Assembly: GCA_977017645.1 (NCBI GenBank)
Contig: OZ360234.1
Coordinates: forward strand, 17,546,001-17,610,000
Source of the DNA: Torpedo marmorata
Taxonomy: Eukaryota
Reading direction: 5' to 3'
Length of the DNA: 64,000 nt
In this document: one piece after another, positions 7,397 through 60,128 of the stretch
Numbering within the stretch: the first letter of the stretch is position 1
Layout of the letters: each line of letters begins with the position of its first letter
Translations under genes and position numbers: made by a program
Notes under the pieces: generated by a model
The model's database searches: none
What the model saw: the letters and a program-made list of their open reading frames with translations, nothing else
Told to the model about the DNA's origin: nothing

Positions 7397-8226
7397 AAAA
7401 TGGCGGTGCTGCCAGAGCCACTGTACCGGCAGCGCTGCCACGGACCCGCGGGGAGCAAGGAGCGGAGATACAGCGCTCCCACGGGGTCCAACCGTCCAGT
7501 CAACTGCCGTCAGCTCCGCACAGGCTTTGAACGGCCCGTTAAAGGAGCCGACTGTAGTTTTATTTAAAATCCCGCAACCGCGGGGTCTGCGCCCAAGATG
7601 GCAACGCCTCTGATCGGCAGCAGCCACGAGGGGTTGCAGACTCCAGGGGAGCGGAGGACTGGCGCAGGGCACCAGAAAACGGGGAGACCATTCCCCGTCT
7701 GAGAAGGAGAAGCAGAGGAGACGACCCATGGGACGGTGACCACGGCAGCGGACCAGTGAGGGGGCTCTGCGGCTGAAAGACCAATGCATGCGGTGGGCTG
7801 CTGGCGACTCGAGGCGAGGAACCCGCGGAGGCTGTGGGCTGCTGGAGACTGCTGTCGGGAGACTCATGCCGAGCTGTGGACTGCTGGAGACTGGGTGAAG
7901 GGGTACCAGGTATTGGAACCAGGATGCAAGGGGGTGCCGAAGGCGCTGAAGGGTTCATGACCGTGTCGGAGGTTCGGATCTGGAGCCCGGGTTGCCAATG
8001 GTTTGAACTGGACTCTGTGGCTGCGGAGGCTGTGGAAGCGCTGGAGGCGAATCTACGGACACTGGGTGACTCTGGGGGGGGACTCTCTTTTGCTTCTCTT
8101 TCTCTGACTGTAAGAGGTGCTTCAGGCAATTTCTGCCGATGGCGAATCTGTCTGTCTTACAGCAGGCAAAAGCAATTTTGTGTAATATGACACTGTTTTA
8201 TTGCATGACAATAAATTGAATCTTGA
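7397..8226 (+). mobile_element. GC-rich non-autonomous retroelement, copy 1 (about 830 bp)
   Basis: Starts aaaatggcggtgctgcc and ends gacaataaattgaatcttgaa. It interrupts CR1 and is colinear with four other copies in the window. Confidence 0.85.
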
Positions 8227-26275: not shown

Positions 26276-29200
26276 TGTGGTAAACCACTATTGTACCACT
26301 GTATATATTATGGGCTGGGGCAAGCCTGATCATGTCCTGTCTGTCTGTCCCGGTGACTCCTCCCCCTCTCCCCTGGAATAAAGGCCTTGAGCCACTGACT
26401 CCACCCTCAGTTCCGGGACAGTCTAGTAGGGATCAACAGGTCTAAGTGTAGCTTAGCCCTGGCCTGAATTCTGGTAATAAAAGCCTATTGATCTCCTGTA
26501 CTTCTTGCCTTGAGTAAGTCATTGATAGGTATATCAATTTTATTACCAGTCTTAATCTGATGGAGAATTTTCTGAGGCCAGACAAGCTAGACATTGCCCC
26601 CCTGGCCCAAGACCCCGCAAGTACCTTCGAACTCTGGCTACGCTGCTTCATACCCTTCCTGAGGTCGACCAGAGCGGTCAGCGACGAGGACAAACTCGAC
26701 ATCCTCATGTCTAGGGTAAGCCCACGGGTGTATAACACCGTCAGAGACTGCGAAACGTACGATGCTGCCTTGGGAGCCCTTAAAAGGCTGTACCTGACGC
26801 CTGTGAACGCGGTCTACGCGAGGCACAGGTTATCGCAACGGCGCCAGCGACCCGGAGAGTCGATCTCCGAGTACATCCAGGACGTGCAGCTACTGGTGCG
26901 GGCGTGCGATTGCCGAGCCCTGACGGCTGAGCAACACGCTGAACTGTTGGCAAGGGACACGTTCATTATGGGGCTCAGGTCGGTTTACATTCGCCAGCGA
27001 TTGCTGGAACACGCCGACCTGACCCTGAAATCTACCGTCCAGACGGCCCTCACACTGGAGGCTGCGCTCAGGAACTCTGACGCTATGCAGGCGCAGCCTG
27101 CCTCGTGGATCGCCCCAACCGCCAGCTCTGCAAGCGACGTGACTGCCGCTGCCGTCTACCATGACCCGATCGCCGCCGCTGCCGCTATCCGTGAGTTGGC
27201 CGCCGCCGCCGCTACCCGGGAGCCCGCCGCCATCCGTGAGTTAACCGCCGCGGCCGTTACCCGGGAGCCCGAGAAGTGTTACTTCTGCGGGCTCGACAAA
27301 CACCCACGCAAACGCTGCCCGGCCCGAGACGCGACTTGTTCTAGCTGCGGCAAGAAAGGCCACTACGCTAAGGCCTGCCGCTCCAAGCCGCGTACGGGTC
27401 CGAGCAGCGCCGCGTGCGAAGTAAGGGAGCGGCCATCTTACCTGTCGTCACTTCCAGCGGTGACCTCGTGCGAGGAATGGAGGCGGCCATCTTGGCCCCC
27501 GGCACTTCCGATACCAGCACTTCCGGCGCGGCCATTTTATAGCCTCACCGCGGCACTTCCAGCACCGCCATCTTGCAGCGACACGTGCGACCTACGGGGG
27601 CTGCCATCTTCGTCAGCGTCGGATCAAGACGGCACGTCGGATCAAGACCACGTCCCGACCCTGGCATCCGTGACGCTGGATCAGAGCGCGCCCCATCAGC
27701 TGTCCAGATCGATGATGGACATATTAGTTGAGGGGCATAAGACTACCTGCCTGTTCGACACAGGCAGTACTGAAAGTTTTATCCATCCAGACACCGTCCA
27801 GCGCTGTGGCCTCACAATTGTACCGGTAAGCCAGAGGGTGGCCATGGCGTCTGGAACACACACAACAGACATCCGGGGGGGTTGTGTGGCGAACATAGTG
27901 GTACAGGGCACGGAATATCGGGGGTTTTCATTGTTGGTCATGCCCCGTTTGTGTGCTCCTGTATTGCTGGGACTGGACTTCCAAAGCCACCTGCTAAGCG
28001 TCACCATGCACTATGATGGGCCCCACCCTCCGATCGTAGTGACTAACCCCGAGTATTTGAGTAATACGCCCCAGACTACCTGTGGTCTCTCCACGCTGAA
28101 GATCCAACCCCCGTCACCTTTCGCCAACCTGACCCCTGACTGTAAGCCTGTAGCAACTAAAAGTAGGTGATACAGTGCAGGGGACAGGGCATTCATTAAG
28201 GCGGAGGTGCATCGTCTACTGGGGGAAGGGATCATCGCACCCAGTAACAGCCCCTGGAGAGCTCAGGTAGTCGTAGTGAAGAACGGGGCCAAGAGCCGGA
28301 TGGTGGTGGACTACAGTCAGACCATTAACCGGTTCACGCAACTGGATGCCTATCCGCTGCCGAGAATCGCGGATATGGTCAACCAGATTGCGCAGTACAA
28401 AATCTTTTCCAACATTGACCTAAAGTCGGCATACCACCAACTTCCGATTCGCCGGGAAGACCGAGCGTACACCGCTTTCGAGGCGGACGGCAGGTTATTC
28501 CATTTCCTGCGCGTCCCCTTCGGGGTAACAAACGGGGTATCTGTGTTTCAACGGGAGATGGACAGGATCGTTGACCAGTTCAAACTCACTGCCACCTTCC
28601 CGTACCTGGACGACATCACCATTTGTGGTCATGATCGCCAGGATCACGATAGGAACCTTCGGAAGTTCCTGCAGGCGGCCAAGACGCTGAACCTCACATA
28701 TAACAAGGAGAAATGCGTGTTCGGGACTACCCGACTCGCTATCCTGGGGTGTGTCGTGGAGAACGGGGTGATTGGACCCGACCCCGACCGCATGCGCCCC
28801 CTGTTGGAACTTTCGATTCCCCATACCCCCAAAGCCCTTAAACGATGCCTCGGGTTCTTCTCGTATTATGCGCAGTGGGTCCCAAACTACGCGGACAAAG
28901 CCCGACCCCTCGTCAAGTCCACCAAGTTTCCCCTGGCAGCGGAGGCACGTGAGGCTTTCGACCTCATAAAAGGGGACATCGCCCGAGCAGCGATGCACGC
29001 GGTGGACGAGTCGGTACCTTTTCAGGTAGAGAGTGACGCATCGGACTTCGCACTGGCTGCTACCCTCAACCAGGCGGGAAGACCGGTAGCGTTTTTCTCC
29101 CGCACCCTTCAAGGCCCCGAAATTCGGCACTCCGCGGTAGAGAAAGAGGCCCAAGCCATAGTTGAGGCTATTCGGCACTGGAGGCACTATCTCGCCGGAA

Positions 29201-30892
29201 AACGTTTTACCCTGCTGACGGACCAGCGCTCCGTCGCATTCATGTTTAACAACCAGCAGCGGGGTAAAATCAAAAATGATAAAATCATGAGGTGGAGAAT
29301 AGAACTCTCCACCTACAATTACGACATCCTTTACCGGCCCGGGAAGCTCAACGAGCCCTCCGATGCTCTATCCTGGGGATCGTGCGCCAGCACGCAGATC
29401 GACCGGTTATACTCCCTCCATTGCGACCTCTGCCACCCAGGAGTTATAAGGCTGTTCCACTTCATAAAAGCACGGAACCTGCCTTACTCCCTGGAAGAGG
29501 TCAGGACCATGACCAGCAGCTGCCGAGTCTGTGCGGAGTGCAAACCGCAATTCTACCGCCCCGACAAGGCACAGCTGGTCAAGGCCACCCGCCCTTTTGA
29601 ACGTCTCAGTATCGACTTCAAGGGCCCCCTTCCCTCCACGAACCGCAACGTGTACTTTCTTAATATTATCGACGAGTACTCGCGGTTCCCCTTTGCCATC
29701 CCCTGCCCCGATACCTCGGCAGCTTCGGCTATTAAAGCCCTCCGCCAGGTATTCACCTTGTTCGGGTTCCCCTGCTATGTCCATAGCGACTGGGGATCCG
29801 CGTTCATGAGTGAGGAACTGCGGCAGTACTTGCAGACCCGAGGCATCGCCACCAGTAGGACCACGGGGTACAACCCACGGGGAAACGGACAGGTGGAGAG
29901 GGAGAACGCCACTGTATGGACAGCTACGCTACTGGCCCTGAAATCAAAAGGGTGGCCAGTGGCCCGCTGGCAAGAGGTTCTCCCGGACGCCCTCCACTCT
30001 ATACGATCCCTGTTATGTACCTCCACAAACACTACCCCTCACGAACGTCTTTTTCCTTCCCTAGAAAATCGACCACCGGAACTACCCTCCCTACCTGACT
30101 GACGTCCCCGGGACCGGTGCTACTCTGCAAACACCTTCGGAGTAGCAAGTACGAGCCCTTGGTCGAGAGGGTGCAGCTGACCCATGCGAACCCGCAGTAC
30201 GCATTCGTGGTCTTCCCCGACGGGCGGGAAGACACGGTGTCAATACGGGACCTGGCGCCTGCAGGAGCGTTGGAAGAGGTCCCCGACAGCGGGAACGCCT
30301 GGTCACAGCTGCCCCCTCCGCCTCCCAGCACGGCGGGTACAACGCCCCAGCCGGAGCTGGACGAGCCACAAGCCAGGCAGGAGGCAACCCGGACCCAGAC
30401 CCCCCCCACCCTCGTTCCACAACCACAATCATCGCCCGCGCCATCACCGCAGGTCTTACGTAGGTCGCAGCGGCGAGCCCGACCGCCGGATAGACTCAAC
30501 CTGTAGAGGTGATGGTTGCGGCAACCCTACTATGTAAATAATTTGTTTATATTTGTGTGCGCGGGATATTAATTACGGTAATTACGGTGACCACTTCGCC
30601 CCCCCATCGGATTTGTTTTAAAAGGGGTGAATGTGGTAAACCACTATTGTACCACTGTATATATTATGGGCTGGGGCAAGCCTGATCATGTCCTGTCTGT
30701 CTGTCCCGGTGACTCCTCCCCCTCTCCCCTGGAATAAAGGCCTTGAGCCACTGACTCCACCCTCAGTTCCGGGACAGTCTAGTAGGGATCAACAGGTCTA
30801 AGTGTAGCTTAGCCCTGGCCTGAATTCTGGTAATAAAAGCCTATTGATCTCCTGTACTTCTTGCCTTGAGTAAGTCATTGATAGGTATATCA
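26276..30892 (+). mobile_element. full-length Gypsy LTR retrotransposon A (4617 bp)
   Basis: 261-bp LTRs at 26276-26536 and 30632-30892 (TG..CA, identical by eye), 5-bp TSD tgggt, polypurine tract aaaaggggtgaa, PR-RT-RH-IN domain order. Confidence 0.97.
26560..30506 (+). pseudogene. gag-pol polyprotein of element A (disrupted)
   Basis: Two CCHC knuckles (CYFCGLDKHPRKRC, CSSCGKKGHYAKAC), protease LFDTGS, RT YLDD, RNase H ESDAS, integrase H..CH..C..C and SIDFKG..E. In-frame TGA at 28168-28170 and a frameshift near 30060. Confidence 0.93.
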
Positions 30893-30970
30893 TGGGTAGG
30901 GCTGACAAAAATGAAGGCTAGATGACACACAATTATATACATTGGGAAGCCTGTTTGAAGGGTGGTGTCA

Positions 30971-33900
30971 TGTGGTAAACCACTGTTTAGGTGTATTGTG
31001 TGCTAGGGTGTAGTATGGGTATGTCCTGCTGTCTGTCCCGGTGTCTCCTCCCCCTCCCCTGGTTGTCCCGGTAATCCCTCCTCTTTCCTCACCTGAATAA
31101 AGGCCCTTGTGCCACCGCTCCGCCCCCAGTCCGGGATCAGATCTGCAGACCAACTGTAGCTGTGTTTATAGTTAATAAAAGCCTATGGTTCGTTTCCACT
31201 CATAGTCTCTTGAGTGATTATTGATAGGCCTATCAATTTTATTAACTATTAAAATCCGATGGAGAGCGCTCTAAGACCGGACCGATTGGACAACGACCCT
31301 CTAGCTCCTGATGCCGGTAATTCTTTTGAACACTGGCTACGCTGTTTCGAGTCCTTTCTGACGACGATCAAAGCAGAAAGCGAGGACCAGAAATTGGAGG
31401 TCCTCGTGTCCAGGGTAAGCCCTCGGGTATTCTCGACGATTCGCGACTGTAAAACCTACACGGAGGCGATGGACGCGCTGAAGAGAATCTATGTTACGCC
31501 TGTTAACGCGGTCTACGCAAGGTACCGACTATCAACGCGAAAACAGCGGGCCAGGGAGTCGATCGTTGAGTTTGTCAGGGACATACAGTCGCTGGTGCGA
31601 GCGTGCGACTGTAAGGTGCTGACTGCAGAGGAACACGCTGAATTGCTGGAGAGGGACACGTTCATCATGGGGATCAGGTCGGTATACGTGCGCCAGCGGC
31701 TGCTGGAGCACGCCGACCTGGACCTCCGTACCGCGGTTGCAATGGCCCACACGCTGGAGGCCACGCTGCGGAACTCGGACGCCATGCAGGCGCGCGACCT
31801 CCAGCCTGCCGCGTGGTCAGCCCCGTCCCCCAACCCTGCCAGCCATCTGACCGCCGCCTCCGTTTGCCGCGACCTGTTCGCAGCCGCCGCTATCCACGAA
31901 CTCACTGCCGCAGCCGTTAACCGCGAGCCCGAGAAGTGCTACTTCTGCGGGCTCGATAAGCACCAAAGAAAACGCTGCCCGGCCCGCGACGCGACTTGCT
32001 CTAGCTGCGGCAAGAAAGGCCATTATGCAAAGGCCTGCCGCTCTAAGCCGCGCGCGGGTCCGAGCAGCGCCGCGTGCGAGATACGGGAGCGGCCATCTTA
32101 CCTGCTGTCGTTTCCGGCGTCGACCTCGTGTGAGGAGTGGAGGCGGCCATCTTTGATGCTGGCACTTCCGGCGCCGCCATCTTATAGCACGACATCTGTA
32201 CTTCCGGCACTTCCGGCGCCGCCATCTTGCAGCGCGAGCAGCAGCGACACGTGCAACCCACGGGAGCGGCCATCTTTGTCAGCTTCGGATCAAGACGACT
32301 ACATCCCGACCCTAGCATCCGTCACCCTCGACCAGAGTGTTCCCCACCAGCTGTCGCGATCCATGATGGACATCCTGGTGGAGGGGCACAAGACCACTTG
32401 CCTATTTGATACTGGCAGCACGGAGAGTTTCATTCACCTGGACACTGTTCAGCGCTGTGGCCTGACTACCATACCGGTAAGCCAGAGGGTGGCCATGGCG
32501 TCTGGGTCACACACAACAGACATCCGGGGTGCTTGTGTGGCGAACATTGTAGTACAGGGGACAGAGTATCGGCAATTCTCGTTATTTATTATGAATCGTT
32601 TGTGTGCGCCGGTATTACTGGGTCTTGACTTTCAGAGCCACTTACGGAGTGTCACAATGTGATATGACGGTCCCCACCCTGCGATCACTGTAGCGAACCA
32701 CCAGTTCCTGGACAACACGCCTCAGACTACCTGTGGTCTCGCTGCACCTCCGCCTTGATAAACGCTCTGTCCCCCGCACTGTATCGCCCCCGTCGTTATT
32801 CGCCAACCTGACCCCTGACTGTAAGCCGGTGGCAACCAAGAGCAGGCGATACAGTGCGGGGGACAGAGCATTTATCAAGGCGGAGGTGCAGCGATTATTA
32901 CAGGAGGGGATTATTGAGAAAAGTAATAGCCCCTGGAGAGCCCAGGTAGTCGTAGTAAAAGGGGCCAAGAGTAGGATGGTGGTGGACTACAGCCAAACCA
33001 TTAACCGATTCACGCAGCTGGACGCATATCCGCTACCACGAATAGCGGATAAAGTGAATGAAATAGCCCAGTATAGGCTATTTTCAACGATAGACCTAAA
33101 ATCTGCATACCATCAGCTCCCTATCCGTCGGGAGGACCGTTCGTACACCGCGTTCGAGGCGGATGGCAGGCTGTTCCATTTCCTGCGCGTCCCTTTCGGG
33201 GTCACAAATGGTGTGTCAGTATTCCAGCGGGAGATGGACAGGATTGTTGATCACTATAAACTTAAAGCCACTTTCCCATACCTGGACGACATTACCATCT
33301 GTGGTCATGATGGTCAGGACCATGACAACAACCTTCGGAGGTTCCTGCAGGCGGCCAAAGCATTAAACCTCACGTATAATAAAGACAAATGCGTGTTTGG
33401 TACCACCCGCCTCGCCATTTTGGGGTGTGTGGTCGAGAACGGGGTTATTGGACCCGACCCCGACCGCATGCGGCCCCTGCTGGAACTCCCGCTTCCCCAC
33501 ACCCCCAAAGCCCTTAAACGATGCCTCGGGTTCTTCTCATACTATGCGCAGTGGGTTCCCAATTATGCTGATAAGGCCCGACCCCTTGTAAAATCCACCG
33601 CATTTCCCCTTGCTTCGGAGGCACGTAAGGCGTTTGACCTTATAAAAGGGGACATTGCACGAGCAACAATGCACGCGGTGGATGAAGAGACACCTTTTCA
33701 GGTAGAGAGCGACGCATCGGACTTCGCGCTGGCTGCTACCCTCAACCAGGCGGGAAGGCCGGTGGCGTTTTTCTCACGGACCCTCCAAGGCCCCGAAATT
33801 CGGCACTCCGCGGTGGAGAAGGAAGCCCAGGCCATAGTGGAAGCCATCAGGCACTGGAGGCACTATCTCGCCGGTAAGCATTTTACCCTGCTGACAGATC

Positions 33901-35533
33901 AACGCTCTGTGGCTTTTATGTTCAACAATCAGCAGCGGGGTAAGATCAAAAATGACAAGATCATGAGGTGGAGAATAGAACTCTCCACCTACAATTACGA
34001 CATCCTTTACCGGCCCGGGAAGCTCAATGAGCCCTCCGATGCTCTATCCCGGGGATCATGCGCCAGCGCGCAGATCGACGGGTTACACGCCCTACATGAC
34101 GACCTATGCCACCCAGGAGTTACCAGGCTCTTTCACTTTGTGAAGTCACGGAACCTGCCATACTCCCTGGAAGAGGTCAGGACAATGATCAGCAGTTGTC
34201 GGGTTTGCGCGGAGTGCAAACCTCAGTTCTATCGCCCCGACAAGGCACAGCTGGTCAAAGCCACCCGCCCTTTTGAACGTCTCAGCATTGACTTCAAGGG
34301 CCCCCTTCCCTCCACGAACCGCAATGTGTATTTTCTGAATATTATTGATGAGTACTCGCGGTTCCCCTTCGCCATCCCCTGCCCCGACACTTCGGCTACC
34401 TCAACCATTAAAGCTCTTCACCAGGTATTTACGCTATTTGGCTTCCCGAACTATATACATAGTGACCGGGGATCAGCTTTTATGAGTGAGGAGCTGCGAC
34501 AGTATCTGCTGACCCGAGGCATCGCCACTAGTAGGACCACAGGTACAACCCCCGGGGAAATGGACAGGTGGAAAGGGAGAACGCCACGGTCTGGAAGGCC
34601 GCGCTCCTGGCTCTCAAGTCCAGGGGACTGCCGGTCTCCCGCTGGCAAGAGGTCCTCCCTGAAGCCCTCCACTCTATCCAGTCCCTGCTGTGCACGTCCA
34701 CAAATGCAACCCCTCACGAACGACTTTTCTCCTTCCCCAGGAAGTCGAACACCGGAACCATCCTACCTGCCTGGCTGATGTCCCCGGGACCCGTGCTGCT
34801 CCGCAACCACCTTCGGAGCAGCAAATATGAGCCGACGGTCCAGAGGGTGCAGTTAGCGCACGCTAACCCACAGTATGCCTACGTGGTCTTCCCTGATGGG
34901 CGAGAGGACACGGTGTCAATTCGTGACCTGGCGCCCGCTGGAGCGCCGGGAGAAACCCTCGACGGGCAAGACCACTTGCTGCAGCCCCTCCCCATTCCCC
35001 CTCCCAGCACGTCAGCCCCAGCACCCTCGCCGGGACCGGATACGCCACAAGAAGCCAGGCAGGAGGCGACCTTGCAGACAATCCTGCCATCTCCCCCATC
35101 ACCACAACCCGCCCCGTCACCACGGGTACTGCGCAGGTCGCAGCGGCGAATCAGACCACCGGATCGCCTTGACCTGTAAAATTGAATGTAAATATATCTG
35201 TTTTGTGTCTGTAAAATAGTCACTGTGGTCACTTCACCCCGCTGGACTCTTTTAAAAGGAGGGGTGAATGTGGTAAACCACTGTTTAGGTGTATTGTGTG
35301 CTAGGGTGTAGTATGGGCATGTCCTGCTGTCTGTCCCGGTGTCTCCTCCCCCTCCCCTGGTTGTCCCGGTAATCCCTCCCCTTTCCTCACCTGAATAAAG
35401 GCCCTTGTGCCACCGCTCCGCCCCCAGTCCGGGATCAGATCTGCAGGCCAACTGTAGCTGTGCTTATAGTTAATAAAAGCCTATGGTTCGTTTCCACTCA
35501 TAGTCTCTTGAGTGATTATTGATAGGCCTATCA
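30971..35533 (+). mobile_element. full-length Gypsy LTR retrotransposon B (4563 bp), sister family of A
   Basis: 265-bp LTRs at 30971-31235 and 35269-35533 (four transitions seen), 5-bp TSD tgtca, polypurine tract aaaaggaggggtgaa. Confidence 0.97.
31259..35179 (+). pseudogene. gag-pol polyprotein of element B (disrupted)
   Basis: Same domains as A. TGA at 32660-32662, frameshifts near 32740 and 34550, C-terminus RRSQRRIRPPDRLDL. Confidence 0.93.
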
Positions 35534-53129: not shown

Positions 53130-54840
53130 AGTTATTAAAAAGTTCTGATAAGAGTAAATTAATGAGGGCAGGGCAGTAGACATCATCTACATGGACTTTA
53201 GCAATGCCTTTGACAGGGTCTCGCATGATAATCTAGTCTGGATCGCTTGGGATCCAGGGCGAGTCAGTCAATTATATACAGAATTGACAGAGGATGGTGA
53301 ATGGTAGGGCCCTGGACAGTGCTGTAGAATAGGGAGGCTTGTGGGTACAGGGGCATAGTTCCATGAAATAGGTGGCCAGGGTGGTGTAAGTGCTTAGCAT
53401 GCTTGCCTTCATCAGTTAGGGCATTGGAGTACAGGAACAGGGAGGTCATGTAACAACTGTACAAGATGGTTAGTCAACACTTGGGAGTTTTGAGCACAGT
53501 TCTGGTCACCCAACTTTAGGAAAGTTACCATTAAGTTGGAAAAGGTGCAGTGAAGAGTTATGAGAACGTTACATGGACTGATAGGCTGGAATTATGTCTG
53601 GAATATTTCTCCCTGGAGTGTAGGAGGCCAAGGGGGCGGGGAAGATTTAGAATTATTTTAAAGTCATGAGGGACATAGAAAACGGTAAATAGTCGTTTTT
53701 TCCCAGTGGAAGGGAATCTATAACTAGAGGGCATTGGTTTAAGACGAGGGGAAATATTTTAAAAAGACCCAAAGGGCATCTTTTTCTACATAGAGGGTTG
53801 TGGGAATATGAAACGAGCTGCCAGAGGAAGTGGTAGAGGTGGGTACAATTGTAATATTGATAAGACAGGTACATGGCGGCGCTGCCGGAGCCGCTGTAGC
53901 GTCAGCGCTTCCGCTGGTGCGGACCCGCGGGGAGCGGAGATGCAGCGCTCCCGTGGGGTCCAGCCACCCAGTCGACTGCCGTTGGCTCCGCACGGGTTTT
54001 GAACGGCCCATTGAGGGAGTCGACGGTGGTTTTTATTTGAGATCCCGCGACCGCGGGGTCTGCACCCAAGATGGCGGCGCCTATTAATCGGCAGCAGCCA
54101 CGAGGGGCTGCAGACTCCGGGGAAGCGGAGGACTTGAGCAGGGCACCCGAGGACGAGAAGATCACGCCCCCCCCTGTCTGAGAAGGGGAAGCGGAGGAGA
54201 CAACCCACGCGATGGTGACCACGGTGGCGGACCAGTGAGGGGCTCTGAGGCTGAAGGACCAGTGCATGCGGTGGGCTGCTGGCAACTTGAGGCGAGGAAC
54301 CCGCGGAACATGTGGGCTGCTGGAGACTGCTGTCGGGAGACTCGCGCCGGGCTGCGGACTGCTGGAGACTGACTCGAACTGGCTGGAGGGGTACCACGTA
54401 TCGGAACCGGGATGCGAGGGGGTACCGAGGGCGCCGAATGGTTCCTGACCATGTCAGAGGTTCGGATCTGGAGCTCGGGTTGCCAATGGTTTGGACTGGA
54501 CTCTGTGTGGCTGCGGAGGCTGCGGAAGCACTGGAGGCGAATCTACGGACACTCGGTGACTCTGCGGGGACTCTCTTTTGCTTCTCTTTCTCTGACTAAG
54601 TCTGACTAAGAAATGTAAGAGGCGCTTAGGCAATTTCTGCCAGTGGCGAATCTGTCTGCCTTGCAGCAGGCAAAAAGAAATTTCATGTAATATGACACTG
54701 TTTTATTACTATGATAATAAATTGAATCTTGAATAGGAAAGGTTTAGAGGGATATTGGCCGAATGCAGACAAATGGGATTAGCCTGGTAGGTATGGACAG
54801 GGTTGGCCGAAGAGCCTGTTTCTGTGCTGTAGAAATCTAT
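53130..54840 (+). mobile_element. decayed CR1 3' half split by GC-rich element copy 4
   Basis: VDIIYMDFSNAFD.VSH, TRGH.FK, CR1 tail ggccgaagagcctgtttctgtgctgta. Confidence 0.8.
53873..54733 (+). mobile_element. GC-rich non-autonomous retroelement, copy 4
   Basis: Starts atggcggcgctgccggagccgc and ends aataaattgaatcttgaa; CR1 sequence resumes on both sides. Confidence 0.88.
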
Positions 54841-55627
54841 GAATGCAGAGAATATTTTCACTGTGAGAGGCCATCATTATAAAACTGTCATCAAACAAAA
54901 GGGAATTCAAAAGAAATTTCTTTACCCAAACAGTGCTGAGAGTATGGAAGGTGAGGTGAGCATGGACAAGGGAGAAAGGAATACAGGACTGCAATTATAG
55001 AATTGGATGCAGAGCCTTTTTGTGCTGTGAATATCCCTTGTTATCTTGTATGGTAAAAAGTCAGATGATTGATCTGACTGTGTGCACACTTTACACAATA
55101 AAGGGCAAAAATCTTTTTTTGGGGGCCTGGGCTTATTATGAGCTAATGTCCTCAAACCCTATTTTACATTCCTTTGCCTGTAATCTCATTCTCTAACTAC
55201 CCCCCATCTCCTGTTTATTTCCCAATTTTCTCTCTCTTACAGCCCTCATTAACTGGATGATGTTTGCCATGTATCCGAAGGCAATCCTGGCCTCACCCTT
55301 ACAGAGATATGATCTTTGATAAACCCATCTCCCCACCCACCTCCGAATCACTTATTCTGCAACTTAAACCTCACGTTTTCTCTCCTACCTAGTTCTGACA
55401 AAGGGTCTTGACCTAAAATGCTAACTCAGTTTCTCTTCCCACAAATGCTGCCCGAGTGTTTCTAGCATTTTCTCTTATTTCGCACTTACAGCATCTGCAG
55501 TTTTAAATTTAATTTCAAAAGAGAAAGCGGGTCATGATGAATTTCACAGGATCACTTTCTGTACTATTTTAATGGTTTACTTATCATACAGTGAGTATGT
55601 GGTAAGTAGAAGTTTGTTTATACTTGC

Positions 55628-55736
55628 CTATAAGCATCCAAATTCCAAACATTGTCCAAGTGTCCAAATCCATCATCACCATCAAGTAAACATTTACAAA
55701 GATACTGACGATAGGTAGGAAGGGAAGGAATGGTAC
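55628..55736 (-). CDS. SLC7A3: CAT-3-like exon with GC splice donor
   Basis: [37 protein letters not shown]; acceptor ctttcag, donor gcaagt; phase matches the last exon. Confidence 0.9.
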
Positions 55737-56074
55737 CTGAAAGGGCAAAGGGAAAATATTGATTTTTTTCTCTCAACTATTAAAATAGCATTTCTCACAG
55801 AATCAAAATGCTGTGCATGCTTGAACTATTTGGGTCACATAGCTTCTGCGTTCATTCAAATTCTGGCTTTGTCTCCACACATACTGTCTGACCTGCTGAA
55901 TATTTCTATTATTTTCTATATTATTATTTTTTATTGTCTACCATTCAAGGGGGAACTAATTTTGCTTCTTTATTGATTTGATGGTCAATTTAAATTAGAA
56001 CATTGAAAATATGGTGCAAAAACTAAGGCAAACTTTCTACTGTTCCTAGTGATTAGGGAGATTGAAAGATTTAC

Positions 56075-56241
56075 CTTAAAAGTAAGTGTCACTTCACTCT
56101 GTGGCTGTTTCCATATCACGAATGTAATAACTGCAACCACCAGGCAGAGTGTCCCAAGCACCATTACCCAGATGGCTCGTCCATCCAATATTTCTGTTTG
56201 ATATTTGGCAACAATAATGGCAATACAAGTCAAGACAATTG
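56075..56241 (-). CDS. SLC7A3: CAT-3-like exon
   Basis: IVLTCIAII...FVIWKQPQSEVTLTFK; ag/gt boundaries in phase. Confidence 0.9.
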
Positions 56242-56727
56242 CTGAAATGGAATAATGAAACAGGAATCTTAAAGATGCGAGACAACATGAATCAATGGAA
56301 AAAAATAACAATTGGATGCGTTGAATTAGGCAGGGCTGAGTAAATGAAAATCTCTTTTTGTGGCACACACAAAACATAGAGAAGAGTTCTATTTACTCCC
56401 AAACAATATTTTACCTGAACCACATTGGATTATTCTTTCTTCCACAGTAGGAATAATTTGGGAATAAAAATTCAAGATGTTGAACAATTAAATGCCCTGG
56501 CTGCTCTCCAAACCCCATGTGAATTTATATACCCACATTCCTTTTTTATTGGATCCTAAATCCACTATGCTTACAAATAAACCATAAATATCAATTTTTA
56601 TTATCTGCATAGGCACAAGGAGAGTACATTCTTTACAAGCAGAATCAGTGATATCACTGCCAATCAAAAGATCATTTTCACAGAATGTTCCACATAAAAG
56701 TCAGTGTTTCAGTCTCAAGATACTTAC

Positions 56728-56936
56728 AAAGAATTCCAACACAGATGTAAATTATTAATCCAGAACTTTTCGTGGGTTTTTTTCCTTTTGGGTAGAATAG
56801 TAACTTTAACGACACCAAAGCTTTATCTTCAGCCTTATAACCTTCACTGTTGATTTGAGTTTCCAGGTTGGTTTTGCTTTCTCCAAATGGAGTCATTTCA
56901 TACAAATCACATTTCATAAGCTGAGGAGGCTGATAT
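56728..56936 (-). CDS. SLC7A3: CAT-3-like exon
   Basis: RYQPPQL...PTKSSGLIIYICVGIL; acceptor cccag, donor gtaagt. Confidence 0.9.
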
Positions 56937-57300
56937 CTGGGAATAGAATAAAGCCAAAATTAAACCTTTGTGCCGCCACCTAGAAGTTCCTAAGTTACAC
57001 ACTATTCTGATCTGTACATATATTGCTGTTGTTACATCTTTGCTGGGTGTAAATAATGGGGCTTCTAATCCAACTGCCAGCAGAGTAGCGTTGCCACATG
57101 TACTGCAGTAATTCAAGATGGCATTGGCATCTTCACCAGGGCAATCAATGAAGGCAATCAATGCTGATCTTCATCCCGTCAATGAATAATAACACAATGT
57201 TAATTGTGTCTAAAGGATTCTTTTCGTATATCAGCCACATGTTGCTGTAACATGGCAATAAGTTGTTAGCTTTTGTCTGAAGAAGAACCACTTCACTCAC

Positions 57301-57403
57301 CTGAGGATAAGAACACAAACTGCCACCAAGGAATAAGCAAGTAATGTACCAATAGACATGAGGTCAACTAGAACATCCAGGTCGAAGAGCAAAGCCATGA
57401 TAG
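57301..57403 (-). CDS. SLC7A3: CAT-3-like exon
   Basis: [35 protein letters not shown]; acceptor catcag, donor gtgagt. Confidence 0.93.
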
Positions 57404-57708
57404 CTGATGAACAAAACAAAAACAAATGTGACTACACACACACACTATCAACATCTACACATTCGTGGACACACTGCGATCGATTCATTTATTTGGTCAT
57501 TCCAACCTCTGAAACAAAATTATATTTATTAAATGTTTTGATATGCTAAAATAGCATCATGATGTATCTTTCCTAAAGGAGATTGAGTTATTACAAGTAT
57601 TCTGCAACTTTAAAAAAAAAAGTATTATCTAATTGTTCATTCAAGAAAAGTTACAGGAATTTCATATGAATCAGACCACTCAGTGGAACACCACAAACAT
57701 GACACAGT

Positions 57709-57940
57709 AAAGGTTCCATTATTGTCACGTAATACTACATTTAGAATGTAACATACATGAAATTCTTTAATTTTTGTCTACCATAAGGCAGACAAGAGAG
57801 TCGTTACTTTGTCCAGCGCCCCTCACAGAAACCTACAGCACCTGGTGTTCCTAGGCGGTCTCCCCTCCAAGTACTGACCAGTCCTGTGCCTGCTTAGCTT
57901 CCGAGATCAGACAATCCCAGTCGTATTCAGGCTATTGGTG
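57709..57940 (-). mobile_element. 5S rRNA-headed SINE (SINE3-type)
   Basis: 57831-57935 is a degenerate reverse complement of 5S rRNA (cctacagcacc.ggt.ttcc.aggcggtctccc.tccaagtact.accag..ctgcttagcttccgagatcagac). It is fused to a 120-bp tail shared with the GC-rich element. Confidence 0.85.
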
Positions 57941-57942
57941 CT

Positions 57943-58600
57943 GTTTCCGATTAACCGAAATTCCGAATATCCGAAAGTTTTTTCGGGTGAGACATGACAT
58001 CACAATTTGAAAAAAAATTTACCCACCGTGCTCAGGTGGGGCTACAGGGAATCAGTTTTACAAAGGAGACATTTGTCCACAGGTTACACATTGACAAAAA
58101 GGATAGCACTGATTATTTATTTATAAATTGTAATTTTTTTGCCGAGTTACTGCAACTTTGTGATAAATTGCATTGTGGCGCTGCTGCTCTCTCCCTGCTC
58201 GCCCGCCCGAGCCGCGCTCTCCCCGCTCACCTGCCCGAGCCGCGCTCTCTCCCCGCTCGCCTGAGCCGCTCCCTCTGTCAAATATCCTTTCAGCTGGGTC
58301 GCTGAAATTCTGCTGGAGGACAATCCCTGTGCAATCTCCTACCACTTACAGGTGAAGTGAGACCTCTGGCTCCCGGTAAGGAGCGGGGACCTCGGGCTCC
58401 CGGGCAGGATTGGCGACGGTGGTGGGGAGGTGTCGGGGATCGGCAACTGCGTGGGGAGGTGTCGGGGATCGGCGACAACTGATACAAGTATTCTCCTGAT
58501 GCTACTGGGCTGCTGTGGAGAAAATTCTCGAATATCCTAAAAATCCGCTTAACAGATATAGGTCCGGTCCCAAGCATTTCGGATAATCGGAAACGTACTG
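57943..58600. mobile_element. non-autonomous Tc1/mariner (Tigger-like) DNA transposon
   Basis: TIRs gtttccgattaaccgaaa / tttcggataatcggaaacgtactg followed by TA. The left terminus (cagta at about 57705) appears to be separated by the 5S SINE. Confidence 0.72.
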
Positions 58601-58742
58601 TACAAGCTTTCTTCATTCAACTACCATACATTTGTATTTTTATTCACTGAACAGGGAATGAATTAAAATTGACCAACTACCAGTAGAGTGGTGTTTCACT
58701 GTAAAATGATTCCTTAGGATGCCTATTTTAAACTCTACTCAC

Positions 58743-58882
58743 CAGCCACAGCACCAGAAACAATGGTTGCATGCACTGGCGTCTTGGTTTTTTTGTGTGT
58801 GTTCCCCAGGAAGCGGAAGAGCAATCCATCCTCAGCCATTGCGTATATGACACGTGGCATAGGAAACATAGAGCCCAGTAAA
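58743..58882 (-). CDS. SLC7A3: CAT-3-like exon
   Basis: [47 protein letters not shown]; acceptor aatctag, donor gtgagt. Confidence 0.95.
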
Positions 58883-59049
58883 CTAGATTAGAGAAAGGGA
58901 CAATGGTAGAGATCAGGACCACTCAGCGTTGAGCCTACTTCATTTCTTTATTTGTGTGCTCTTGTTACACAAAAAGTTCTGTATTACTGTGTTTCATTTG
59001 GTTGCAGATACACAAGATTCTGGAACTGGAGCTACTGGCATTATTTGGA

Positions 59050-59890
59050 GATTCAAGATTCAATTTATTGTCATAGTAATAAGACAGTGTCATATTCCAT
59101 GAAATTTCTTTTTGCCTGCTGCAAGGCAGGCAGATTCTCCACCGGCAGAAATTGCCTAAGCGCCTCTAACATTCCTTACAGTCAGAGAAAGAGAAGCAAA
59201 AGAGAGTCCCCCCCAGAGTCACCAAGTGTCCATAGATTCGCCTCCAGCGCTTCCGCAGCCACACAGAGTCCAGTCCAAACCATCGGCATCCCGAGCTCCA
59301 GATCTGAACCTCCAACACGGTCAGGTCGTCCTCGGCACCCCCTCGCATCCCAGTTCCGATACCTGGTACTCCTCCAGCCAGTTCGAGCCAGCCTCCAGCA
59401 GTCTGCAGCCCGACGTGACTCCCCCGACAGAAGTCTCCAGCAGCCCACAGTCTCCGCGGGTTCCTCGCCTCGAGTCGCCAGCAGCCCGTCGCATGCACTG
59501 GTCCTTCAGCCTCAGATCCCCTCACCGGTCAGCTGCCGTGGTCACCGTCCCGTGGGTCGTCTCCTCCGCTTCTCCTTCTCAGACGTGGGTGATCTTCCCA
59601 TCCTCTGGTGCCCTGCTCCAGTCCTCCGCTTCCCCAGAATCTGCAGCCCCTCGTGGCTGCTGCCGGTTAAAAGGCGCTGCCATCTTGGGCGCAGACCCCG
59701 CGGTCACGGGATCTTAAATAAAACCACCGTCGGCTCCTTTAACGGGCCGTTCAAAGCCTGTGCGGAACCGACGGCAGTCGACTGGGTGGCTGGACCCCGC
59801 GGGAGCGCTGTATCTCCGCTCCCACGCTCCCCGCGGGTCCGCACCAGCGGCAGCGCTGCCGCTACAGCGGCTCCGGCAGCGCCGCCATTC
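59050..59890 (-). mobile_element. GC-rich non-autonomous retroelement, copy 5
   Basis: Reverse complement starts aatggcggcgctgccggagccgc and ends aataaattgaatcttgaatc; ttggag on both flanks. Confidence 0.88.
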
Positions 59891-59895
59891 ATTGG

Positions 59896-60128
59896 AGGGG
59901 CGGCACGGTTAGCGCAACGTTGTTACAGCACCAGTGACTGGGATTCTAATCCCGCGCTGTCTGTAAGGAGTTTGTACATTCTCCCCGTGTCAGCGTGGGT
60001 TCCTCTGGGAGTTCCGGTTTCCTCCCACCCTTCAAAACCTATCAGGTTGTAGGTCAATTTGGTGTAGTTGGACGACGTGGGCTCATGGGCCAGAAGGGCC
60101 TGTTACCATGCTGTATGTCTAAATTTAA
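59896..60128 (+). mobile_element. tRNA-derived V-domain SINE
   Basis: Colinear with 25925-26170. Confidence 0.85.

Follow-up and report, generated by a model that had tools for sequence, protein, structure and literature searches.

The 64,000-nt window analysed here (Torpedo marmorata, contig OZ360234.1, positions 17,546,001 to 17,610,000, forward strand) contains two full-length Ty3/Gypsy long terminal repeat (LTR) retrotransposons, A and B, both of which carry Pfam matches in the order Gag-PR-RT-RH-IN (Gag, protease, reverse transcriptase (RT), RNase H, integrase), paired TG..CA LTRs and a target duplication (Table 1). The two are separate insertions in the same orientation, 78 bases apart (gap 30893-30970) and each with its own target duplication; the coding regions of both copies are interrupted, and no chromodomain was found among the Pfam matches of the elements. 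In the linker that joins the second CCHC knuckle to the aspartic protease, each element carries an in-frame array of short motifs whose letters match the YY1 and ETS consensus sites and which, as set out below, are conserved as nucleotides rather than as peptide.

In array A (27430-27610), GCCAT(C/T)TT occurs five times (27432, 27486, 27531, 27567 and 27603) and CACTTCC four times (27449, 27503, 27518 and 27554), and in array B (32090-32280) GCCATCTT occurs five times (32092, 32146, 32176, 32221 and 32269) and ACTTCCGG three times (32164, 32200 and 32209), all on the plus strand; no minus-strand occurrence of these motifs was found within either interval. The original prediction, which read the arrays as an internal antisense promoter or enhancer able to fire toward the 5' LTR and flanking DNA, had given these counts and coordinates, and the recount agreed exactly; the KMAA and PEVP repeats that it described on the minus strand are likewise present. 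The full ACTTCCGG is found in just one of the four CACTTCC sites of A and in more of them in sister copies. Across the window, GCCATYTT was observed 22 times against 7.3 +/- 2.8 expected, a count reached by none of 100 shuffles, and ACTTCCGG five times against 1.1 expected, with one shuffle in 100 as high. GCCAT(C/T)TT-type sites match the YY1 consensus. For ETS, the ProCapNet paper quotes the consensus as CCGGAAGTG.

All family DNA comes from one genome, the 6.2-Gb assembly that holds the window. A first look by protein search gave about 55,000-60,000 candidates with gag or protease similarity, which are not copy numbers, and 150 loci were fetched, in 145 of which both flanking anchors were found. 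From linker and gag signatures, the copies were put by hand into six groups, which represent three deep lineages: A/B/C (YY1 and ETS), D1/D2 (YY1 only) and E (YY1 and ETS). A 20-nt ETS-YY1 composite, matched exactly, was counted 21,330 times in the genome (reversed control, 0) and lay in the gag-protease linker at 30 of 30 loci inspected, these being the first along one contig and several of them from the same element.

For the codon test, 110 of the 145 copies were retained after removal of out-of-frame or frameshifted linkers. Pro-Ser pairs are coded CCA-TCT in 457 of 614 cases in the linker and in only 11 of 170 in the remainder of these frames, against background codon shares of 0.08-0.27 for CCA and 0.05-0.14 for TCT. 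By group, the linker values are 114/145 (A), 148/176 (B), 110/146 (C), 59/93 (D1), 8/16 (D2) and 18/38 (E), and those outside the linker 0/50, 0/51, 0/35, 2/18, 3/5 and 6/11, respectively; D2 and E have additional same-strand YY1 sites upstream of the knuckle, which likely explain most of the 11 outside pairs. The base 5' of CCA-TCT is G in 448 of 457 cases and the base 3' is T in 450 of 457, while the flanking residues vary widely (R/P/L/T/A/S/Q/W before, Y/W/C/S/L/F after). Where Ser comes next, its codon is TCN without exception (74/74), and where Leu does, TTN (70/70). Ser-to-Phe variants are tolerated (CCATCTT to CCATTTT, with CCATNTT kept), a big change to the peptide yet a neutral one for the YY1 consensus. 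The ETS sites are coded A-CTT-CCG, whereas the usual Leu codon is CTG, and in E they occur in two reading frames, Leu-Pro and Thr-Ser-Gly. Since fourfold sites in gag, zinc knuckle and protease (E unscored for gag) match between lineages A-C, D and E at an identity of only 0.19-0.44, which is near saturation, the fixed codons are not explained by shared ancestry alone. Free synonymous variation inside the motifs, set beforehand as the refuting outcome, was thus not seen. Site spacings are divisible by three in 429 of 442 cases; therefore protein constraint holds too and the linker is dual-coding. The array is very probably a nucleotide-level element, and we regard it as a putative DNA-level regulatory module overprinted on coding sequence, with a function that we infer.

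The single orientation seen in the window persists across the family, with 2.3-4.9 YY1 sites per linker on the plus strand and 0-0.03 on the minus strand in all groups. Read on the transcribed strand, AAGATGGC is the usual YY1 promoter orientation, so that starts at the array would be antisense, toward gag. Motif constraint together with one orientation agrees with a YY1/ETS-type vertebrate promoter. Of the original prediction, then, the nucleotide-level constraint, as opposed to selection on an RPS/LPA peptide, and the single orientation stand, while firing into flanking DNA is unsupported: the antisense frame varies from 5 to 185 codons across subfamilies, the minus-strand CAG|GTAAG splice donor is confined to subfamilies A-C, and a minus-strand AATAAA lies just within the 5' LTR boundary in most copies. 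The unconserved antisense frame likewise speaks against a product like ORF0 of human L1.

Table 1. Coordinates of elements A and B and of their features within the window.
Feature	Position	Strand	Remarks
Element A, whole	26276-30892	+	paired LTRs TG..CA; 5-bp target duplication TGGGT
A 5' LTR	26276..26536	+	261 nt, TG..CA; identical to 3' LTR (261/261)
A LTR/post-LTR stem	26471..26549	+	12-bp perfect pairing, 26471-26482 (around AATAAA) with 26538-26549
A gag-protease frame	26560..28170	+	two CCHC knuckles, linker, aspartic protease; frame ends at in-frame stop in this copy
A YY1/ETS array	27400..27630	-	five AA(G/A)ATGGC and four GGAAGTG, overprinted on gag-protease linker
A 5' splice-site match CAG|GTAAG	27437..27444	-	overlaps last YY1 site; confined to subfamilies A-C
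A pol (RT, RNase H, integrase)	28171..30506	+	broken near 3' end
A 3' LTR	30632..30892	+	matches 5' LTR fully
Element B, whole	30971-35533	+	paired LTRs; 5-bp target duplication TGTCA
B 5' LTR	30971..31235	+	265 nt
B LTR/post-LTR stem	31168..31249	+	13-bp perfect pairing, 31168-31180 with 31237-31249
B gag-protease frame	31259..32662	+	frame ends at in-frame stop in this copy
B YY1/ETS array	32060..32290	-	five AAGATGGC and three CCGGAAGT, two tandem at 32200-32216
B 5' splice-site match CAG|GTAAG	32097..32104	-	
B pol (RT, RNase H, integrase)	32694..35179	+	broken
B 3' LTR	35269..35533	+	

The array marks one branch of the Gypsy elements. In an RT tree of 34 rows, made up of search hits only and no reference elements, the eight array-type rows form one clade (support 100/99), in which the label of P0020 rests on its kinship with P0006, as the P0020 gene model skips the linker. 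All named hosts of this clade are sharks or rays, and three of the eight rows have an unknown host. Related proteins come from Scyliorhinus, Mustelus, Hypanus, Hemitrygon, Mobula and Narcine, and these shark and ray proteins have linkers of similar type, with Pro-Ser-Trp/Cys or Thr-Ser-Gly. Most other homologues have short linkers without repeats, the short linkers of invertebrate-type relatives are free of the motifs, and the array was not found in the DNA of five such short-linker relatives (L152-L156). In a search for DNA from other vertebrates, a metagenome scan returned one unrelated Gypsy element without the array, and a viral scan returned nothing.

Several records labelled as bacterial metagenome-assembled genomes hold eukaryote-type Gypsy elements akin to the array group (L152-L156), probably as host contamination. 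In P0001 and P0074 (Scyliorhinus torazame), the linkers contain five or six Thr-Ser-Gly repeats, which correspond at the peptide level to ACTTCCGG in another frame. A further recurrent sequence, GTGCGA (Cys-Glu/Asp), precedes many YY1 sites at a constant distance of five codons (seen in the linkers of L061-L150 and in proteins P0027, P0039 and P0041).

At the boundary of the 5' LTR, no transfer RNA (tRNA) primer site was found 3' of the LTR in the window elements or in family loci L001-L150. Instead, the next 12-17 bases after the LTR pair perfectly with an LTR segment around AATAAA, 51-56 nt upstream, with letters that differ per subfamily. The 3' arm of the A stem sits at the expected tRNA primer position and reads AATAAA on the minus strand, and the letters of the B stem are unlike those of A, with the pairing retained. 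A perfect stem of at least 10 bp is present in 28/30 copies of A, 30/30 of B, 29/29 of C, 18/29 of D1, 5/9 of D2 and 10/16 of E, with a fold z of about -3, and an equivalent stem (14 bp, 39-nt gap) occurs in two array-less relatives, L155 and L156. The stem looks like a device for Tf1-type self-priming or for shielding the 5' poly(A) signal. The boundary AATAAA could terminate an antisense RNA, although on the antisense strand the signal could equally be hidden by the pairing. Because it is an arm of this covarying stem, paired with the LTR, and is also present in relatives that have no array, we dropped the boundary AATAAA as independent support for an antisense RNA.

As a plausible mechanism, which we favour tentatively with a probability of roughly 0.45, the array would act as an internal activator of the short 5' LTR. 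YY1 and an ETS factor such as GABP, suggested by the vertebrate consensus, would bind the linker array, and the bound array would raise the output of the LTR about 1 kb upstream. Given the orientation of the sites, RNA antisense to gag would start at the array as a by-product; such an orientation would avoid sense starts that yield truncated RNAs without the primer region, and the antisense RNA would meet the AATAAA at the LTR boundary first. For antisense initiation our guide is human models, in which YY1 has strand-specific effects immediately upstream of its own position, and ETS is bidirectional (10.1101/2023.06.27.546584, 10.1101/2024.05.28.596138). The non-coding stretch between the LTR and the gag start is only about 23 bases, which would make the flexible linker the free space for such sites. 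No YY1, ETS, CCAAT or GC-box match was found in the LTR of A, which has 2 CpG. Selection on a very successful family was most plausibly for more full-length RNA, and an internal activator of the LTR is therefore preferred.

Several observations weigh against this activator reading or limit its reach. The LTR of B has two GC-box-like matches and one ETS-like match, and ETS sites are missing from lineage D. CpG decay in the linker equals that in the rest of the element in six of six groups (Fisher p 0.09-0.70), even though sets A and B were chosen by likeness to the linker, which would if anything favour low decay; therefore, most inserted copies are not shielded like a CpG-island promoter, a result that concerns bulk copies and from which a few active copies could differ. 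According to the ProCapNet paper, high-affinity YY1 and ETS sites are depleted in enhancers relative to promoters, so a promoter role fits better than a pure enhancer role. The A-B pair alone is confounded and may reflect mosaic ancestry, because its synonymous conservation reaches into the knuckle, which is itself unusually alike (15/19). Copies within a subfamily are non-independent, so that the deep codon test amounts to three lineages in one genome, and the motifs in other sharks and rays are read from peptides, shark and ray DNA having been read in this genome only.

Among the alternatives, a role of the array in the peptide alone, as a Pro/Ser-rich spacer or a PPxY-like late motif, with the repeats in the DNA merely left behind by recent tandem duplication, is highly improbable and is largely refuted by the codon test. 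Although the units are tandem duplicates in multiples of three, PPSY occurs in B and C, and Cys and Trp recur within the unit in rays and sharks, the same codons are kept across lineages near synonymous saturation, neighbouring residues vary where their bases do not, ETS sites fall in two frames, and PPxY is missing in A, D and E. Nucleotide-level conservation is in turn silent on DNA versus RNA, and the motif might be selected as a nucleic acid outside transcription, bound for example by YY1 or another protein on the element RNA or cDNA, with a part in packaging, tethering in the nucleus or integration. YY1-RNA and YY1-integrase interactions form the background to this idea, and the GTGCGA that recurs five codons before the site, otherwise unexplained, would leave room for it; we hold it to be unlikely, as the tandem ETS sites alongside are a promoter signature and the array has no conserved RNA fold (no unusual fold was found in the two arrays, z 0.09 and 0.24). 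YY1 could also be an initiator on the CCAT strand and start a sub-genomic RNA in the sense direction, for protease-pol or for a Ty1i-like regulator. The ProCapNet paper reports YY1 and ETS sub-motifs that initiate on either strand, an internal sense transcript is described for Ty1, and in A-E a Met-Met stands after the array, where the protease starts. However, this Met sits downstream of the conserved LASVTLD stretch, is missing from P0002, P0030 and P0041, all of the array clade, and occurs in some proteins without the array, and bulk YY1 initiation is strongly biased to one strand, all of which makes such a sense start quite unlikely.

A dedicated internal antisense promoter, with RNA across gag as the selected product (self-limitation or small-RNA tuning, in the manner of Ty1 antisense RNA or micropia) and possibly spliced or read through into flanking genes in the manner of the L1 antisense promoter, is conceivable, although we consider it somewhat unlikely. 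It draws on the strict orientation of a direction-specific motif, which extends to the separate pre-knuckle sites in D2 and E, on the tandem ETS sites accompanied in A-C by the minus-strand CAG|GTAAG donor, on the minus-strand AATAAA at the LTR boundary, and on XP_072926687.1 (P0116), a predicted Hemitrygon akajei protein that opens with the antisense array peptide. Against it, there is no conserved antisense frame, D and E lack the donor, and the boundary AATAAA is accounted for by the LTR pairing and found in array-less relatives. Retrocopies combining an antisense junction with poly(A) numbered 0, against 6,512 control-junction matches, in a weak test whose exact pattern covers mainly subfamilies A-C. 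P0116 is one prediction, and the motif itself holds a strong start-codon context; no further gene model starting with the antisense peptide was found at E<=0.01 among 1,105 candidates, and a second search returned only the query itself among 75, both searches being weak for short low-complexity peptides. Finally, the size of the family, with its roughly 55,000-60,000 candidate matches, makes selection for a self-limiting RNA harder.

If the array works at all, it would do so like the internal promoters of Ty1, micropia and L1. As in yeast Ty1, whose antisense RNAs start in gag (PMC7175516), transcription control would lie inside the gag of an LTR retrotransposon; Ty1, however, is a Copia-type yeast element whose RNAs were shown by experiment, whereas here a tandem YY1/ETS array in a vertebrate Gypsy clade has been read from its letters. 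Drosophila micropia is an LTR retrotransposon with an internal promoter that drives antisense RNA over a coding region (cited in PMC2615633), but its RNA is testis-specific and complementary to RT, while the RNA predicted here would cover gag, and the consulted portion of that paper makes no mention of a YY1/ETS array for micropia. The human L1 5' untranslated region likewise uses YY1 and ETS sites to control a retroelement, the YY1 site is needed for accurate initiation, and an L1 antisense promoter exists (PMC4982230). The L1 sites, in contrast, lie in non-coding sequence, and L1 has a translated ORF0, whereas the Gypsy sites stand in several copies within coding sequence, face the antisense direction and come with no conserved antisense open reading frame. 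In L1, YY1 serves the sense start. YY1/ETS housekeeping promoters are typically unmethylated CpG islands; bulk Gypsy copies, which decay at CpG in the linker as elsewhere, differ in showing no such methylation protection. Vertebrate housekeeping promoters as described in the Puffin and ProCapNet papers do share the same motif set, with YY1 strand-specific and ETS bidirectional. No account of this array or clade was found in open-access papers (including passages of PMC3601003). Internal and antisense retroelement promoters are thus already known, and the coding-linker YY1/ETS array would be a variant of them.

As an example of dual coding within a retrotransposon the array is a clean one, with transcription factor motifs fixed at synonymous sites across otherwise saturated lineages. 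It points to a way in which an element that has hardly any untranslated sequence adapts to the transcription factors of a vertebrate host, and such adaptation may help explain the very large expansion of the family in this 6.2-Gb assembly. Should the cassette be active, its copies, in the tens of thousands, would give cartilaginous fish a potential source of promoters, of antisense RNA and of binding sites for YY1 and GABP. A bolder scenario, which we regard as doubtful, is that a short-linker Gypsy lineage gained a complete housekeeping promoter, antisense within its polyprotein, upon entering sharks and rays, and that the more than 21,000 ETS-YY1 cassettes which it has since spread in this genome seed antisense starts, small-RNA templates and new host first exons.

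Elsewhere in the window, a repeat of about 800 bp occurs three times (at approximately 7400-8220, 53900-54730 and 59050-59880), with a 3' AATAAA, a TTGAATC-type tail and a YY1-consensus site near its other end. This site reads AAGATGGC toward the tail, as in L1-style sense use.

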